A DNA stretch of 64,000 nucleotides. It comes from an uncultured Candidatus Saccharibacteria bacterium (GTDB lineage: Bacteria > Patescibacteriota > Minisyncoccia > Phycocordibacterales > UBA9973). The position numbers were made by a program, and so were the translations under genes. Position 1 is the stretch's first letter. Each line of letters starts with the position of its first letter. Shown piece by piece: positions 13,589 to 64,000 of the stretch. The stretch is from the NCBI GenBank assembly GCA_964412965.1, contig CAYPQU010000002.1:26004-90003 (forward strand), read 5' to 3'. A model generated the notes under the pieces. That model searched no databases. It worked only from the letters and a program-made list of their open reading frames with translations, and was not told where the DNA came from.

Positions 13589-14968
13589 TTATATTTTAGT
13601 TATTTTATAGCCATCACCGGTGTCTTTTATTTCATAACCTAAATCTTTTATTTTATTCCTTAGCTCATCACTTTTTATCCAGTCTTTATTATCTCGAGCT
13701 AGCTTTCTTTCTTCTGCCATTTTGATTATTTCTTCAGGTGTTTCTTCTTGTTCTATTTTGTCTAAACCAAAACCAAAAACTCTATCGAAATCTAAAATAG
13801 TTGCTAGTTTGTCTTCATTGCTTACTCGTTTATCTTTTACTAAATCCCATAGAATAGACAAGGCTTTTGGACTTTCTAAATTATTATCCATAGCTTCAAT
13901 AAATTTATTTTTATATTCTTCGTTTATTTTTCCTTTTATATTACCTAAAGAAACAATAAAATCTCTCAGTCTAATGAGTGCGGTTTGGGTGCTGTGAACT
14001 GCTTCTTTGGTAAAATTAACTCGAGTAGTATAGCTAGAACTATATAACCACATTCTAAAGGCAACAGGATCAATTCCCATTTTTATCAAATCTTCTAAAA
14101 TATAAAAATTACCTAAAGATTTACTCATTTTTTGACCATCAACAAGTAAATGTTCGTTGTGAATAAAGTATTTAGCAAAGTCTCCACCTAGAGAACACTT
14201 AGATTGAGCAATTTCGTTTTCGTGATGGGGAAAGATCAGATCTACACCCCCTGTATGAATATCAAAAGTTTCTCCTAAATTTTTTACGCTCATAGCAGAA
14301 CACTCTATGTGCCACCCAGGACGACCCTTTTCTATTTCACTTGATTTACCCAAAATTTCTTCAGGATTCCAAAAAACATCACCGTCTTCTTCGCTCCATT
14401 TTTTCCAGAGAGCAAAATCTTCGGCATTTTCTTTGTCATACTCATCTTTACTTAGACGATTATCTGCATTCTCTTTTAAGTCAGATATTTTAAAGTTGGA
14501 AAGCTTACCGTAGTCATTAAATTTTCTAATATCAAAATAAATAGAACCGTCCTTTGCTTTATACGCAAAACCTTTTACTAAGAGCTCTTCTATGATTAAA
14601 AGCATTTCCTTAATATAGTCAGTGGCTTTAGTGTATTTTGTGGTAGGTAATATGTTTAATAAATCTCTTTCGCTAAAAAATAGGGAAGTGTAATATTCCG
14701 TGAAATCTTTTAGGGATAGCCCTTTTGATTGAGAGGTTTTTATAGTTTTATCATCTACATCAGTAATGTTCATTATGTGTTTAACCTTAAAACCTTTGTA
14801 TTCTAAATATCTTCTTAGAAGATCAGAGAAAACAAAAGCCCTCCAATTGCCAATGTGAATTTTGTTATATACAGTAGGTCCACAAGAATAGATACCAACC
14901 TCATCGTTTTTTAGTGGTACGAATTCTTCTTTATGTCTTTTAAGTGTATTAAATAAAACTAAGCTCAT
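13589..14968 (-). CDS. cysS: cysteinyl-tRNA synthetase
   Basis: HIGN (CGPTVYNKIHIGN) and KMSKS (KMSKSLGN) class-I motifs, and a CysRS-like zinc-site region. Confidence 0.9.
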   Translation of the reverse strand: MSLVLFNTLKRHKEEFVPLKNDEVGIYSCGPTVYNKIHIGNWRAFVFSDLLRRYLEYKGFKVKHIMNITDVDDKTIKTSQSKGLSLKDFTEYYTSLFFSERDLLNILPTTKYTKATDYIKEMLLIIEELLVKGFAYKAKDGSIYFDIRKFNDYGKLSNFKISDLKENADNRLSKDEYDKENAEDFALWKKWSEEDGDVFWNPEEILGKSSEIEKGRPGWHIECSAMSVKNLGETFDIHTGGVDLIFPHHENEIAQSKCSLGGDFAKYFIHNEHLLVDGQKMSKSLGNFYILEDLIKMGIDPVAFRMWLYSSSYTTRVNFTKEAVHSTQTALIRLRDFIVSLGNIKGKINEEYKNKFIEAMDNNLESPKALSILWDLVKDKRVSNEDKLATILDFDRVFGFGLDKIEQEETPEEIIKMAEERKLARDNKDWIKSDELRNKIKDLGYEIKDTGDGYKITKI

Positions 14969-15597
14969 AATATGATTGTTAAAATTAGTAAAATTAATAA
15001 AATCAAATTTAATATAAATAATATCTTGTATTTTTTTTCTAAACTTAAATTTTTTCTTTTAAGAAAACTATTGTTTATGTCTTTTAATAAAATCTTATCG
15101 TGCATTTCGGTCAACATCTTTCTTACAAGATTAGCAAAAAGTAATTCTTGATTATTGATTTTTGATTCAGATTCTATCACCGTGTCTAATTCTAGTTCGC
15201 TAGAAAATTGTTCTATAGAACTGAGAGGTTGATCATGTATTGTTATGACAAAATTTTGGTTTTTAATAAAGACCATTTTTGACGAACTTTCCGTTGGCTC
15301 TCTTTGTGAAAATTTAATAATACAATAGAGCGTATCATTCTCAATGAAGGTGTTGTGATCTTTAGAAGGACTGTGTATCTCTTGTTTTATATCTTCAGGT
15401 ATCTTGTATTCATCTAAAATATAAACAACCTCTTCTTCTTGAGGCGAGGTTAAATCTATCCAAACGATCCCTTTATTTTTATACTTAGATATCACAAAGT
15501 TATTATAACAACAAGAGAGGAGCTTAAGCAAATGAATACTAATTCGTTTGCTTAGTGTCCGAACGCTGTTGTTATATAGTACTCTATATAACAACAA
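14965..15597 (-). CDS. hypothetical protein with a C-terminal TM helix and weak CorA-N-terminal-like similarity; start uncertain
   Basis: KGIVWIDLTSPQEEE...YKIPEDIKQEI resembles the CorA N-terminus, but no GMN motif is present. The first 31 codons, including the TTG start used by the ORF track, lie inside the 83-bp tandem repeat. A GTG at 15495 is an alternative start. Confidence 0.3.
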   Translation of the reverse strand: MLLYRVLYNNSVRTLSKRISIHLLKLLSCCYNNFVISKYKNKGIVWIDLTSPQEEEVVYILDEYKIPEDIKQEIHSPSKDHNTFIENDTLYCIIKFSQREPTESSSKMVFIKNQNFVITIHDQPLSSIEQFSSELELDTVIESESKINNQELLFANLVRKMLTEMHDKILLKDINNSFLKRKNLSLEKKYKILFILNLILLILLILTIIL

Positions 15598-15737
15598 GAG
15601 AGGAGCTTAAGCAAATGAATACTAATTCGTTTGCTTAGTGTCCGAACGCTGTTGTTATATAGTACTCTATATAACAACAAGAGAGGAGCTTAAGCAAATG
15701 AATACTAATTCGTTCGCTTAGTGTCCGAATGCTGTAT
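15505..15737. repeat. 83-bp tandem direct repeat, about 2.8 copies (units start at 15505, 15588, 15671)
   Basis: The unit ataacaacaagagaggagcttaagcaaatgaatactaattcgtttgcttagtgtccgaacgctgttgttatatagtactctat is repeated near-identically. Each unit carries inverted repeats (ataacaaca/tgttgttat) and, on the plus strand, GAGAGGAGC-N8-ATG plus 7 codons plus TAG. Confidence 0.8.
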
Positions 15738-15830
15738 TTGCCTCCAGTATTGCCTAAAAACTTGCTTTTTCTAGCCTTTTTGTGTATTATAAGTTTTACC
15801 TAGGTTTTAGACCCCTGGGGAGTTAAATTT

Positions 15831-16226: not shown

Positions 16227-16841
16227 TTGTCTATTTTTTAGGGCATTCTTGATAGTTTCGCTATCTGAGTATTCCAGCTCAGTTCCCGTTGATAATCCAC
16301 GGCCAAGCGAAACTATTTTTATATTATATTTATTAATCAAGGCAGATAGTTTTTCTCGTAAAAACAAATCAGTATGTTCACCCTGAGGGTTAATCGACAA
16401 AGCCAAGATTATTTCTTTTAGAAATCCTTGTTTTGCCCTTTCTTCTACTATGTTCAACAATTCTTTAACTCTCAAAAAACTTAAAACCTCTTTGTTAATT
16501 ATAGGGGCTAAACCACCCAGTATAAAATAGTAGCCGTTGTAAACTTTACTTCTTTTAATGTTTTCGTAATCAGAATCTTTTTCTATAATCAGAAGACAAC
16601 TTTTGTCTGTTTTGGGATTTTTACAATTTTCACACAAATCTGGTTTTTGTGATTGAAAAAATAAAAAACACGAAGGGCATTGATGAATATTATTTTTTAA
16701 ATTCAAAATATTTTTACCCAACTCAGAGACGTATGAGGAATTTTTGTGTAAAAGAAAATATACAAAACGCTTGGCTTGTCGTTCTCCTATGCCAGGAAAT
16801 TCTTTAAAGTATTGTGATAATTTTTCTATTGAATCTTCCAT
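16224..16841 (-). CDS. recR: recombination protein RecR
   Basis: N-terminal HhH (FKEFPGIGERQAKRF), C4 zinc finger (CPSC...CENC) and a Toprim region. Confidence 0.85.
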   Translation of the reverse strand: MEDSIEKLSQYFKEFPGIGERQAKRFVYFLLHKNSSYVSELGKNILNLKNNIHQCPSCFLFFQSQKPDLCENCKNPKTDKSCLLIIEKDSDYENIKRSKVYNGYYFILGGLAPIINKEVLSFLRVKELLNIVEERAKQGFLKEIILALSINPQGEHTDLFLREKLSALINKYNIKIVSLGRGLSTGTELEYSDSETIKNALKNRQ

Positions 16842-16961
16842 CCCGTTAGAAGCAGGTCTCGGTCGTTGTCATTTACAACAAACCAATATTTGCAAATTAA
16901 TCTAATAATGTTTAAATAATTTTATATCTCTTTATCCCGTGACCGAGGCTTCTAACGGGAT
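16840..16961. repeat. copy A of a ~120-nt structured element family (terminal inverted repeats, two internal hairpins, conserved 24-nt core)
   Basis: About 85% identical to 63071-63189. Terminal IR atcccgttagaagc/gcttctaacgggat; hairpins gttgt-cattt-acaac and atcccgt...acgggat. Abuts the recR start codon. Confidence 0.55.
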
Positions 16962-16974
16962 CCGTTTCAATTGT

Positions 16975-33619: not shown

Positions 33620-33687
33620 GTTTGCTTTCTCTCGGACAAAAAATAAAAAACCTTTCGGCTTTTATTTTTGTGCCCGAGGTGGGAACG
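33620..33687. repeat. direct duplicate (~67 nt, ~95% identical) of the tRNA-Leu 3' end (15 nt) plus its downstream terminator flank
   Basis: gtttgctttctctcggacaaaaa(a)taaaaa(a/g)cctttcggcttttatttttgtgcccgaggtgggaa occurs at 33620-33687 and again at 33780-33845, the second copy being the true tRNA 3' end. Confidence 0.7.
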
Positions 33688-33829
33688 CTTCGCTTATCGC
33701 CGACTACATCGGCAGGTACTTTTCCACCTCGCTTCGCTCGTACGGAAAAGTCTTTCGATTCCCGCACAAAAGCAAAGCAGTTTGCTTTCTCTCGGACAAA
33801 AATAAAAAGCCTTTCGGCTTTTATTTTTG

Positions 33830-33911
33830 TGCCCGAGGTGGGAATCGAACCCACATCCCTTGCGAGACACGATTTTAAGTCGTGCGCGTATACCTATTCC
33901 GCCACTCGGGC
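33830..33911 (-). tRNA. tRNA-Leu (anticodon TAA)
   Basis: The minus strand GCCCGAGTGGCGGAATAGGTATACGCGCACGACTTAAAATCGTGTCTCGCAAGGGATGTGGGTTCGATTCCCACCTCGGGCA folds as a cloverleaf with a long variable arm and anticodon loop CUUAAAA. CCA is not encoded. A small bidirectional hairpin aagcc-gaaa-ggctt plus a T-run follows. Confidence 0.85.
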
Positions 33912-34140
33912 AAACAAAACATATAATATATTTTAAACAGCCGTTTGCCCTCGCGTCGGCCTCCTCCTTTCAGTCGGATAAAACATGAAGCAGTTCATCT
34001 TTTATCCACTCGGGCAAACAAAACATATTAAATGTTTTTAATAACAAAAGGTATTATAGCATAAAGATTTTTAAATAGGAATATTAGTTTTTATTTTTTA
34101 AATTTCTCAAAAGGCTTATTTTTTGATATAATCGACTCAT

Positions 34141-48372: not shown

Positions 48373-48405
48373 AACCACATATTTAAAGTATGTGGTTTTT
48401 TGTTT
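48373..48405 (+). terminator. intrinsic terminator after the RRM gene (accacata...tatgtggt plus T-run)
   Basis: Seen directly. Confidence 0.7.
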
Positions 48406-48457
48406 GCAAAATAATACTTTTTTTGTTATATTTTTAGAGTTAAATAATAAATTTAAT

Positions 48458-48491
48458 GCGTGTGTAGTTCAGTGGTAGAACGCTGTTCTGA
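48458..48491 (+). pseudogene. 5'-half copy of tRNA-Ile (acceptor 5' strand through anticodon-loop start), one SNP relative to the full gene
   Basis: GCGTGTGTAGTTCAGTGGTAGAACGCTGTTCTGA is identical to positions 1-34 of the full tRNA at 48552, except C31T. Confidence 0.5.
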
Positions 48492-48551
48492 GTTTTTATA
48501 AAAATAAATGGTTCATTCGTTAAAAATGAGAAAATAAATAGTTTCTTGAGT

Positions 48552-48623
48552 GCGTGTGTAGTTCAGTGGTAGAACGCTGTCCTGATAAGACAGAGGTCGA
48601 AGGTCCGATTCCTTCCACACGCA
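48552..48623 (+). tRNA. tRNA-Ile (anticodon GAT)
   Basis: GCGTGTGTAGTTCAGTGGTAGAACGCTGTCCTGATAAGACAGAGGTCGAAGGTCCGATTCCTTCCACACGCA folds as a cloverleaf. Anticodon loop CUGAUAA and variable loop AGGUC match bacterial tRNA-Ile(GAU). The T-loop TCCGATT has an unusual C55. Discriminator A; no CCA. Confidence 0.8.
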
Positions 48624-48667
48624 CTGAGGACATTATTTATTTTTCATTTTAACTCACTGCCATTTAA

Positions 48668-48706
48668 AAGACAGAGGTCGAAGGTCCGATTCCTTCCACA
48701 TGCACA
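48668..48706 (+). pseudogene. 3'-half copy of tRNA-Ile (anticodon 3' stem through acceptor 3' end), one SNP
   Basis: AAGACAGAGGTCGAAGGTCCGATTCCTTCCACATGCAC is identical to the 3' half of the full tRNA except C70T. It overlaps the first ATG of the downstream ORF. Confidence 0.5.
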
Positions 48707-59712: not shown

Positions 59713-60147
59713 TTATTCAACTATTATTTCGCATTTTCCTTCTAGATTACCCTTTCTTAAAATTACTGAGTGCTTACCTGTGGATTTTATGTGTTCCATC
59801 ACTAAATATTTATCATCTATATGTTCTCCTGTTAATTTTTTAATGGCATCACTAACATCTCTGGCTGTAACAGATTTAAACAAAACACCTTTATCGTTAG
59901 CCTTAGCCTTGATGGTAATTTTTTTATTATTAATTTCTGAAACAAGAACTTCAAATGTTTTATTTTCCTCTTCCCTTTCTCTCTGCCTCTTGGCCTTCTT
60001 TGCTTCCAATTGAGATAACGCTTGAGGTGTAGCTAAAACGGCCTTGCCTTTTGATATTAAAACATTATGGGCAAAACCATCTTTTAAATCTAAAACATCA
60101 TCTTTCTTCCCTATTTTAGGAACATCTATAAGTAAAATAACTTTCAT
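59713..60147 (-). CDS. rplI: 50S ribosomal protein L9
   Basis: MKVILLIDVPKIGKKDDVLDLKDGFAHNVLISKGKAV matches the L9 N-terminal domain. The internal Met at 60147 is preferred over the ORF-track start. Confidence 0.85.
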   Translation of the reverse strand: MKVILLIDVPKIGKKDDVLDLKDGFAHNVLISKGKAVLATPQALSQLEAKKAKRQREREEENKTFEVLVSEINNKKITIKAKANDKGVLFKSVTARDVSDAIKKLTGEHIDDKYLVMEHIKSTGKHSVILRKGNLEGKCEIIVE

Positions 60148-62829: not shown

Positions 62830-63072
62830 TTAAATTTTAATTTCGGGGTTCCTTCTGGTCTCATTCTCTTCTATATTGTCTACAAAATTTTGATCCTGTT
62901 TCATTATCTTTGATAATCTAGCTTTTGTTTCTAAATAAAACAAATACGCAAGATAAATAATAGCGAGTCCGGACACAAAAAAGAGTACTTTTCGCCAGTT
63001 ATTTGGAAATCCTAAATAAGGCAAGATTATCACCCATAAACCAATTAAAAATAATGTTTTTTCTTTTCTCAT
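62830..63072 (-). CDS. hypothetical small membrane protein (80 aa, 2 TM)
   Basis: Two hydrophobic helices. Its start codon is immediately preceded by element B and, ~120 nt further upstream, a near-consensus promoter. Confidence 0.35.
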   Translation of the reverse strand: MRKEKTLFLIGLWVIILPYLGFPNNWRKVLFFVSGLAIIYLAYLFYLETKARLSKIMKQDQNFVDNIEENETRRNPEIKI

Positions 63073-63189
63073 CCAGTTAGAAGCAGGTCGCGGTCGTTAT
63101 CATTTATAACTAACCCATCTCTGCAAATTAATATAATAATGTTTTGAAATTTATTTTTCTTGTCCCGTAATCGCGGCTCCTAACGGGAC
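63071..63189. repeat. copy B of the ~120-nt structured element family; forms the entire 5' leader of the downstream minus-strand small gene
   Basis: About 85% identical to 16840-16961, with compensatory substitutions in all three helices. Hairpins gttat-cattt-ataac and gtcccgt...acgggac. Confidence 0.55.
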
Positions 63190-63199
63190 TCATTTTTAT

Positions 63200-63227
63200 A
63201 TTATACTCCGCAATGAGCTTTTTTCAA
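63200..63227 (-). promoter_or_regulatory. near-consensus sigma70 promoter on the minus strand (TTGAAA-16-TATAAT); predicted TSS ~63192, 2-3 nt before the element B hairpin
   Basis: Minus strand reads ttgaaaaaagctcattgcggagtataat, sitting between the RT stop and element B. Confidence 0.45.
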
Positions 63228-63245: not shown

Positions 63246-64000
63246 TTAAAACCAATTATCATCACTTGTTATTTTTCTCCTCAAATTATAACTATTTGCA
63301 TGCTCGAAATGTCCAAAATAAGATCTTATAACAGGCAGAAACTTTATAGAGTATAAGCCATCTTCTTTGTTTTTATTTTTATACATTTTGTCTTTAAACC
63401 TCCGAACCACCTTTCTTCTTACTAGAGTATGAGTCGGTTTAATATAATAACCAAGAAAGTCTATTCCATGATTAACCTGCCTTAGAAATATCTTATCGGG
63501 GGCCAATTTTAAATTTAACTTCTGATTAAGAAATAGATCAATTTTTTTTATCGTTTCTTCTAATCTTTCTTTGTCTTCATCTAGGATAATAAAATCATCA
63601 ACATATCTAAGATAACGATAAAATTTTAATTCATTTTTTATATAATGATCCAATTTATCTAAATAAATATTTGCAAAAAATTGGCTAGTTAAATTCCCTA
63701 TTGGTAAACCTTTATTTCTATCTCCATAAAACAAAGATTTGTGCTTAGGGACAACGCCTCTTGTATTATTCGCCCCTTTGAAAACATAATTAGATGTTGG
63801 ATCATGAAAAATAATCATTTTTGTTAGCCACAGTATTTCGTCTTTCCACGATTTATCTTTGTCACTTCTCACAATAATCATTTTCATTTCTTCGTATAGA
63901 ATATTTTTGTCTATATTTCTGAAAAATCCCTTGATATCCATCTTTAAATAATACAATCTTCTACCATCCTTTCCTCCTCTTGATATATGATATCTTAATT
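63246..64000 (-). CDS. reverse transcriptase, DGR-type motif set; C-terminal ~250 aa, with the 5' end beyond the window
   Basis: The frame is open to the window edge. RT motif 1 LKMDIKGFFRNID, motif 4 GLPIGNLTSQFFANIYL (the IGxxxSQ variant typical of diversity-generating-retroelement RTs rather than QGxxxSP), motif 5 YLRYVDDFIIL, motifs 6/7 (LNLKLAPDK, GIDFLGYYI), and a short thumb. Confidence 0.75.
   Translation of the reverse strand, partial: LRYHISRGGKDGRRLYYLKMDIKGFFRNIDKNILYEEMKMIIVRSDKDKSWKDEILWLTKMIIFHDPTSNYVFKGANNTRGVVPKHKSLFYGDRNKGLPIGNLTSQFFANIYLDKLDHYIKNELKFYRYLRYVDDFIILDEDKERLEETIKKIDLFLNQKLNLKLAPDKIFLRQVNHGIDFLGYYIKPTHTLVRRKVVRRFKDKMYKNKNKEDGLYSIKFLPVIRSYFGHFEHANSYNLRRKITSDDNWF

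Follow-up and report, generated by a model that had tools for sequence, protein, structure and literature searches.

A palindromic element of about 120 bp occurs twice in the 64,000-nucleotide stretch of contig CAYPQU010000002.1 analysed here (the window; from an uncultured Candidatus Saccharibacteria bacterium), each copy abutting the start codon of a minus-strand gene. Copy A precedes recR and copy B precedes a gene for an 80-residue membrane protein. Both belong to a large family in the Candidate Phyla Radiation (CPR) whose members nearly always lie in one orientation at duplicated start codons, are present in some strains and absent from others, and show a bias towards one open reading frame (ORF). 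We regard the element as probably a non-autonomous mobile DNA element similar to MITEs (miniature inverted-repeat transposable elements), with oriented insertion specific to start codons and, probably, a translation relay, and not as a riboswitch.

The boundaries of the two copies (Table 1) were set by a covariance model, which scores copy A at 94.1 bits (E = 9e-25) and copy B at 70.8 bits (E = 6e-18). They lie one base inside those of an earlier, sequence-only reading of the window, which had placed both copies correctly against minus-strand ATGs and had put their identity at about 85%, close to but a little above the 82% measured here. The near-invariant core motif that it described occurs exactly twice in the window and not at all in shuffled sequences. 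A relaxed search for termini and remnants, together with the covariance model, revealed no third copy or remnant in the 64 kb window. Copy A occupies the gap between the dnaB stop codon (16977–16975) and the recR start codon (16841–16839, minus strand), ending on the A of that ATG. Copy B is preceded by a reverse-transcriptase gene, the stop of which is at 63246, and followed by the gene for the 80-residue protein; it likewise ends on the A of the ATG (63072–63070, minus strand). Read in the direction of the gene, each copy begins with the outer arm TCCCGTTAGAAGC and the inner arm C(G/T)CGRTC, continues through an AT-rich interior, and ends with the inner arm GAYCG(C/A)G, a 4-nt bulge AYCT and the outer arm GCTTCTAACGGGA, the final A of which doubles as the A of the host ATG. 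The predicted fold of copy A has an energy of -42.5 kcal/mol (z = -5.9 versus shuffles); that of copy B, which has three non-canonical pairs and partly degraded arms, is -26.7 kcal/mol (z = -1.9).

The description of A and B as a two-member family is correct inside the window but not elsewhere. One genome per species was scanned on both strands for the pattern CCGTTAGRAGCC-N75–105-CTGCTTCTAA with any interior, and these exact termini were found at at least 119 loci, nearly all of them in metagenome-assembled genomes (MAGs) of Patescibacteria. The lineages among the matches include Saccharibacteria, Paceibacteria and Nomura-, Kaiser-, Levy-, Doudna-, Sungi-, Moran-, Terry- and Taylorbacteria, and the only obvious chance match outside Patescibacteria among the matches listed is in Calothrix. 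The copy statistics given below refer to the 124 pattern-defined copies among the matches listed. A covariance model built from 30 copies detected many more, diverged members in the same loci, which span about 0.94 Mb and contain at least 160 copies. Lengths in the superfamily range from 78 to 134 nt. Inner arms and interiors vary between subfamilies, the interior being hypervariable, with columns that lack a consensus, while the outermost termini TCCCGTTAGA...TCTAACGGGA are common to all subfamilies. The largest ORF within the elements has about 40 codons, and no transposase gene is present within the element. Some short subfamilies carry the Shine–Dalgarno (SD)-like sequence AAGGAGG before the right arm, and two loci (L038 and L062) contain tandem arrays with repeated matches on one start codon. 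IMG/VR contains only two matches, and carriage by phages was rejected on this ground. Canonical copies are also present in MAGs (loci L026, L056, L072 and L082; binchicken co-assemblies) that are labelled 'uncultured Gammaproteobacteria' as deposited; these are likely to be mislabelled or mis-binned CPR contigs. In several cases among L001–L007, L049 and L084 (L007 and L084, for example) a contig end falls inside an element, which indicates that the repeats fragment CPR assemblies.

The most important finding concerns the position of the family relative to genes. In 118 of the 124 copies the sequence ...CTGCTTCTAA(A)CGGG stands directly before an ATG, so the arrangement noted earlier for A and B is shared by other copies, and in 115 the ORF starting there is at least 50 codons long or continues past the end of the locus. 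A second ATG is found on the left flank, immediately before TCCCG, in 96 copies. The duplicated target comprises the start codon and the next 1–3 bases (4 nt in 14 copies, 5 nt in 73 and 6 nt in eight), and of the 96 copies with a left ATG, 86 show a perfect duplication. Because the additional bases differ by gene (ATGAA, ATGGA, ATGAG, ATGCAA, ATGTA and ATGCG), they represent a true target-site duplication and not sequence of the element. At dnaA in L128, which starts with GTG, the duplicated codon is also GTG (GTGGA on both sides). Left flanks without an ATG are mostly one substitution away from the right copy (ACG, ATA or TTG); 23% of copies, copy A among them (ACGGA versus ATGGA), have lost the left ATG by decay.

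Start codons are the site of about 93–95% of the copies, all in one and the same orientation. The right junction is constant, at the first base of the start codon, and the left junction varies from +4 to +6. The search pattern is strand-specific and was applied to both strands, and the few copies located off ORF starts do not display the flanks that a reversed insertion at a start codon would leave. Exceptions are few and remain close to gene starts. Those in L040 and L131 do not sit at a start. In L081 (351–473) the element is inserted 12 nt into a signal-peptidase ORF, and its duplication, ACAGA, contains no ATG. In L125 (3014–3122) the host ORF is fused to the internal ATG of the element, such that CarB would gain a 22-residue extension. 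The host proteins of L125 and L081 seem to have absorbed part of the element. The downstream genes represent 118 Pfam families among 110 ORFs and include those for DnaA, SSB, L13 (rplM), trigger factor (tig), topoisomerase (topA), SecDF, Mur ligases and type IV pilus ATPases. These genes are functionally unrelated, which excludes a regulon, and since some of them are essential, insertion must be compatible with their expression.

Comparison between relatives shows filled and empty alleles at the same sites. Judged by its RecR homologues, the organism of the window belongs among Nomurabacteria/Paceibacterota. The recR site was compared among relatives with RecR proteins that are 77–91% identical. 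It is empty in L137, in which the dnaB stop codon is followed by AAA and then ATGGAAGATTC (empty-site sequence AAAATGGAAGATTC), and also in L139. The same site is occupied by a member of a different subfamily (arms CCCGTTAGAGATA) after the remnant of an older copy in L134, by a degenerate member in L138 and by an eroded copy in L136. At the gene for the 80-residue protein, compared among contigs with an identical protein, the copy B state is shared by the window and L004, whereas L001, L002, L003, L005 and L006 are without the element and have a 7-nt remnant, TAACGGG, before the ATG; L007 has an element with the same arms and another interior. At rplI it is the window that has the empty allele. 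The same site in L001 and L002, which are other strains of the same population, is filled by a 128-nt element of a sister subfamily (3319–3446 in L001) with arms TCCCGTTAGAGGT...ATCTCTAACGGGA and a GC-rich internal hairpin, flanked by ATGAA on both sides. Some of the presence/absence differences fall between strains with identical flanking proteins, and remnants always retain the gene-proximal end. The structural features of a MITE are present, apart from an autonomous partner, which was not found in the loci examined: terminal inverted repeats, a target-site duplication, a small multicopy sequence without a transposase ORF, and insertion polymorphism with empty sites. A MITE-like mobile repeat had been the alternative offered in the sequence-only reading, and the target-site duplications bear it out; the random position and orientation that it had associated with a MITE are not observed.

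Within the element, one reading frame is favoured. The frame ending TGC-TTC-TAA, with its TAA inside the right arm, remains open over 18 codons or more in 73 of the 124 copies, compared with 12 and 23 copies for the other two frames and with an average of 33 (maximum of 44) for shuffled interiors. An ATG-initiated ORF of 19–28 codons, ending ...(L/M)-(I/T)-A-(I/T)-C-F, is present in 62 copies. The TAA is separated from the host ATG by 4 nt in 95 copies and by 5 nt in 22. Before the internal ATG lies a stretch rich in A and poor in G, and position -1 is T in 80% of cases. Judged from these sequence features, the element probably carries a termination–reinitiation relay ORF.

These observations fit together as follows. 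The element inserts at the first bases of a gene, presumably through a staggered cut by a transposase acting in trans; the start codon and 1–3 nt are duplicated, and the element, in one orientation, separates the two copies. The gene continues to start at the right-hand ATG; the left-hand copy becomes dispensable and decays, as to ACG in copy A. The element may supply a replacement for what the gene loses in the form of an A-rich, G-poor internal leader and a short ORF (19–28 codons in about half of the copies and 6–8 codons in A and B, with the SD-like box in some short subfamilies). Ribosomes that end the short ORF at the TAA of the right repeat, 4–5 nt before the host ATG, would re-initiate on the host gene. 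If both arms were transcribed, a stem of about 21 bp would hide the AUG; this stem would be opened if the leader or short ORF were translated or if transcription began inside the element. For copy B, the host promoter places +1 at approximately the left ATG (a leaderless layout), and the predicted transcript thus contains the whole element; a homologous promoter lies immediately before the ATG of the 80-residue protein gene in the element-free strains L001 and L002. The first part of such a transcript would be a leader ORF of 21 codons that extends into the left arm, and translation of this ORF would open the stem. A consequence for translation at the RNA level remains likely.

Several points weigh against this interpretation. 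An autonomous partner or transposase was not found, and the 0.94 Mb of loci contains no long element with these termini; in the loci examined, which are parts of genomes, there are no pairs of termini 0.5–4 kb apart around a transposase. A 10-bp terminus conserved throughout a phylum is unusual for a MITE. The arms are complementary well past this 10-bp terminus, with a sequence that differs by subfamily, and this complementarity beyond the universal 10 bp suggests that the hairpin matters on some single-stranded form, either single-stranded DNA or RNA. With regard to the relay, neither an SD motif nor a -10 box was found before the internal ATG; a leaderless internal promoter for the short ORF was rejected as there is no -10 peak upstream of that ATG. 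The left ATG and the TAA stand in random frame to each other (36/32/28), and a single long relay ORF between them was rejected accordingly. Copies A and B lack the long ORF and have eight-codon versions only. Finally, we know of no transposase that selects start codons, nor did the literature searched yield one, and the observed location of 115 of the 124 copies at starts has P ~1e-46 against an expected frequency of 32% and P ~1e-22 against one of 53%.

These two expectations come from a simple target preference. ATGRA pentamers in the same loci are at predicted ORF starts in 8% of cases, or in 32% when ORF-internal sites are discarded, and an AT-rich upstream context raises the expectation at starts to at most 53%. 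A preference for ATGRA, with or without AT-rich upstream sequence, combined with loss of intragenic insertions thus predicts at most 32–53%, versus the ~93% observed, and was rejected. Targeting of leaderless transcription start sites was also rejected: a TATAAT-like -10 box is present 6–8 nt upstream in only 23% of copies compared with 15% of controls (P = 0.018), and targets of the recR type, which are internal to an operon (3 nt after the dnaB stop in L137), do not fit with it. At the control ORF starts (loci L016–L133), about 11% have an SD-like motif and about 15% a TATAAT-like box 6–8 nt upstream, which suggests that SD-independent and leaderless initiation is common in these organisms. 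The start-codon bias results either from an unfamiliar targeting mechanism or from far stronger selection against other insertions than expected. A full-text literature search found no published description of the terminal sequence in a relevant context or of start-codon insertion in CPR bacteria, and this insertion specificity has no precedent that we could find.

A bolder proposal, which we consider doubtful but worth stating, is that the superfamily recognizes functional translation starts by something other than DNA sequence and acts as a portable translation-initiation cassette (hairpin, relay ORF and TAA-N4-ATG) in CPR housekeeping genes. Recognition of this kind could run via the initiating ribosome, initiator tRNA or an early transcription complex, by recruitment or through an RNA intermediate, and if true would mean that a prokaryotic mobile element selects its targets in a way not described before. 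The more specific idea that insertion reads the act of initiation itself, either through a ribosome-positioned RNA intermediate and a reverse transcriptase or through a transposase recruited by the initiation machinery, strikes us as improbable. It would accommodate the failure of DNA sequence context to explain the specificity, the constancy of the right junction (first base of the start codon) against a variable left one, the GTG of dnaA, and the exception in L081, where the duplication lacks an ATG yet the insertion is only 12 nt inside the ORF. It would also suit the remnants that keep the gene-proximal end and the reverse-transcriptase gene 57 nt upstream of copy B. However, selection can explain the gene-proximal remnants, reverse-transcriptase genes are near elements in only two of ~120 other loci, which is about chance level, and the low frequency of leaderless-type -10 boxes defeats targeting of the transcription start. 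Ordinary DNA transposition is typified by perfect inverted termini and short duplications, and it further counts against an initiation-reading insertion that no mechanism of such a kind is known to us.

The sequence-only reading had favoured a structured RNA, and the base pairing that it described is present. Helix (i) is formed by GTTGT/ACAAC in A and GTTAT/ATAAC in B, helix (ii) by ATCCCGT/ACGGGAT in A and GTCCCGT/ACGGGAC in B, and the long terminal stem, helix (iii), has a T–A pair in A where B has G–C. On the mRNA the terminal helix would hide the AUG, pairing the 13 nt before it as well as its A, and hairpin (ii) would, as had been proposed, compete for the left arm. Among 104 aligned copies the terminal repeats form a 13-bp outer stem and a 7–8-bp inner stem with 96.5% of cells paired, and the covariation anticipated for a larger alignment is significant, with eight pairs changed on both sides versus 1.9 ± 1.0 in shuffles. 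In diverged subfamilies positions 11–13 change in concert, and position 11 is without mismatch. The compensatory U–A pair in the inner arm of copy A (columns 15/111) is the only one there among the 104 copies. Motifs of competing local hairpins are enriched (CGGGA in 11 of the 124 copies versus ~1 expected; GCAGRT in 11 versus ~0.9), but only in a subset, the subfamily of A and B. Together with the strict orientation relative to the gene, these features would be consistent with a cis-regulatory leader (a riboswitch, RNA thermometer or attenuator) conserved or recruited before many genes, with alternative folds that expose or hide the start codon.

The pairing pattern would, however, also arise from the matched terminal repeats of transposon subfamilies or from repair within a DNA palindrome, and it bears no mark of the sense strand. 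Mean folding energies are -37.7 kcal/mol for the sense and -38.4 kcal/mol for the antisense strand (n = 124), the sense strand being the more stable in 56 copies and the antisense strand in 67. If an RNA helix of the sense strand were under selection, G·U pairs should be favoured; the mismatches of the inner stem comprise 26 G·U and 32 A·C cells, and with no excess of G·U there is no strand signature. Strand-specific RNA selection was rejected on the basis of the absence of a G·U bias and the equal folding energy of both strands. Rfam 15 contains no match to the window or to the surroundings of either copy, at the gathering score or at E values up to 10, and so a known RNA family was also rejected. 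The hypervariable interior has no conserved unpaired core, the downstream genes are unrelated, the element comes and goes between strains with identical flanking proteins, and the flanking duplications are specific to the second codon of each gene. In view of these findings the identification as a riboswitch, thermosensor or attenuator was not upheld, and we give an RNA leader little chance of being the correct explanation.

The least probable explanation is a selfish or functional mini-gene for a peptide of ~23 residues (...L-I-A-I-C-F), such as a small toxin or a signalling or leader peptide, the expression of which would be secured by the start-codon site: the strong open-frame bias, the tight ORF length of 19–28 codons with its T-ATG start context and a slight synonymous excess (26% of differences in frame versus 17–18% in shifted frames) speak for it, but half of the copies, A and B included, and other subfamilies lack such an ORF, the terminal repeat dictates the last six residues, the remaining peptide is poorly conserved (0.32, 0.41 and 0.43 differences per site at codon positions 1, 2 and 3), and only two similar peptides, both hypothetical proteins, were found among 5.8 billion proteins. 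This weak amino-acid conservation fits an ORF that is valued for being translated and not for its peptide, as a relay within a mobile element would be.

The starts of essential genes (dnaA, ssb, recR and those for ribosomal proteins) are an unexpected place for a 120-bp palindrome, yet they are near-exclusively its home in the CPR. The question raised is how a mobile element manages, throughout a whole radiation, to find start codons in one orientation, or to survive only there. The elements also constitute a natural experiment on translation initiation in SD-poor, partly leaderless organisms, in which the relay ORF, re-initiation 4 nt after a stop codon and the unmasking of a sequestered AUG are the candidate processes. 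In practical terms, they break metagenome assemblies, can mislead start-codon calling and the discovery of noncoding RNAs in CPR genomes, and are usable as strain-level markers.

Table 1. Positions in the window of the two element copies, their parts and associated sites.
Feature	Positions	Strand	Basis
Copy A (TCCCGTTAGAAGC...GCTTCTAACGGGA)	16841..16960	(-)	Covariance model
Copy A, left outer arm TCCCGTTAGAAGC, pairs with 16841–16853	16948..16960	(-)	
Copy A, left inner arm CTCGGTC, pairs with 16858–16864 (GACCGAG)	16941..16947	(-)	
Copy A, bulge ACCT (4 nt), 3' side between inner and outer stems	16854..16857	(-)	
Copy A, right outer arm GCTTCTAACGGGA, with TAA at 16848–16846	16841..16853	(-)	
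Copy A, right, functional target copy ATGGA (recR start codon plus 2 nt)	16837..16841	(-)	
Copy A, left, decayed target copy ACGGA (ATG to ACG)	16961..16965	(-)	
Copy A, local 5' hairpin ATCCCGT...ACGGGAT, rivals terminal stem for left arm	16934..16961	(-)	
Copy A, local hairpin GTTGT-AAATG-ACAAC, ATG of mini-ORF in loop	16865..16879	(-)	
Copy A, eight-codon mini-ORF MTTTETCF, TAA 4 nt before recR ATG	16846..16872	(-)	
Copy B	63072..63188	(-)	Covariance model
Copy B, right, functional target copy ATGAG (start of 80-residue protein gene)	63068..63072	(-)	
Copy B, left target copy ATGAG, intact	63189..63193	(-)	
Copy B, eight-codon mini-ORF MITTATCF, TAA 4 nt before host ATG	63077..63103	(-)	
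Copy B, putative leader ORF, 21 codons, from left ATG into element	63128..63193	(-)	Translation inferred
Host promoter before copy B, TTGAAA-16 nt-TATAAT	63200..63227	(-)	11/12 matches
Empty target site at rplI (L9) start codon, tatATGAAAgtt	60143..60147	(-)	

Other repeats are present in the window. An 83-nt unit is repeated in tandem three times at 15504–15752 (two units identical and one at 82%), overlapping the predicted 5' end of a CorA-like ORF (14965–15597, minus strand) adjacent to rplU. Partial duplications surround tRNA-Leu (33829–33911) at 33639–34041 and tRNA-Ile (48552–48624) at 48399–48705; in both regions 36–93-nt pieces of the tRNA and its flanks recur 81–159 nt away, which resembles the outcome of integration or excision at tRNA genes or of the decay of tandem tRNAs.

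The reverse-transcriptase gene beside copy B (63246–64000, minus strand) encodes an RVT_1 domain and is cut by the end of the window, leaving an unclassified fragment. It scores below the cut-off for the NCBIfam group II, Drt2/3 and retron models. Its motifs PIGNLTSQFFANIYL and YVDD resemble those of the reverse transcriptases of diversity-generating retroelements. L001 and L002 have a different gene at this place, and a homologue that is 60% identical lies ~1.3 kb from an element in L061. Interpretation of A and B as the template-repeat/variable-repeat pair of a diversity-generating retroelement was considered because of this neighbouring gene and rejected, as A and B differ at all kinds of base, with no restriction to adenines, and neither copy lies in a coding region.

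Two other classes of palindromic sequence were also considered and rejected. An integron attC site would have the opposite polarity (GTTAGAA ... TTCTAAC in the element versus RYYYAAC ... GTTRRRY), and recombination at attC would not leave the duplication seen in the flanks. Classification as a repetitive extragenic palindrome (REP) or REPIN was rejected because of the target duplication and the position at gene starts. Among transposon families, IS1380 and piggyBac have similar termini. The ends of the CPR element read (T)CCCG...CGGG(A) with a duplication of 4–6 nt, and when they are written T-CCCG...CGGG-A its duplication is mostly 4 bp (TGNN); CCC/GGG ends and a short duplication are thus shared. 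IS1380 elements, an ISfinder family, duplicate 4–5 bp. In piggyBac the termini are CCC...GGG and the duplication is 4 bp (PMC10813416). The piggyBac target, unlike that of the CPR element, is TTAA. No IS1380-like transposase or full-length element with these termini was found in the loci examined, and the resemblance is a lead only.

At the level of translation, the nearest parallels are leader peptides and bypass elements. As in the coupling of a leader or upstream ORF of the erm type, a short ORF ends a few nucleotides before a start codon sequestered in a stem; the CPR leader differs in being mobile and in preceding unrelated housekeeping genes, with no regulatory stalling signal evident. 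As in translational bypass (T4 gene 60 and the mitochondrial 'byps'), a hairpin insert lies between identical take-off and landing codons, here AUG...AUG. In contrast to bypass elements, the left codon cannot be required in the CPR element, as it has decayed in 23% of copies, including copy A. The palindromic elements of Rickettsia (RPEs) are likewise small mobile palindromes tolerated in or at essential genes of a reduced-genome lineage, but these insert in frame and join the protein, whereas the CPR element is outside the ORF in ~95% of copies; L125, and perhaps L081, are the RPE-like exceptions.

There are also similarities with small non-autonomous elements of other bacteria. REPINs and REPs are mobilized by a single-copy RAYT (Y1 HUH) transposase. 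REPINs are palindromic doublets of ~100 nt that have persisted for a long time across a wide clade, and such persistence in the CPR would fit a vertically inherited enzyme acting in trans. REPINs differ in being extragenic, mostly downstream of genes, and in having no target duplication; the duplication at the CPR element includes gene-specific bases, which argues for a staggered cut. The Correia elements (CREE) of Neisseria and the ERIC/IRU elements of enterobacteria are bacterial MITEs that are gene-adjacent and co-transcribed. They share with the CPR element a length of ~100–150 bp, long terminal inverted repeats that form a hairpin in mRNA, a large number of copies, presence/absence polymorphism and the lack of a transposase gene; effects on how the adjacent gene is expressed would be a further parallel. 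The target duplicated by Correia elements is TA, and these elements are intergenic, at varied distances from genes and in both orientations, whereas the CPR element duplicates the start codon and 1–3 nt, has a fixed orientation and is distributed over a phylum-level radiation and not a single genus.

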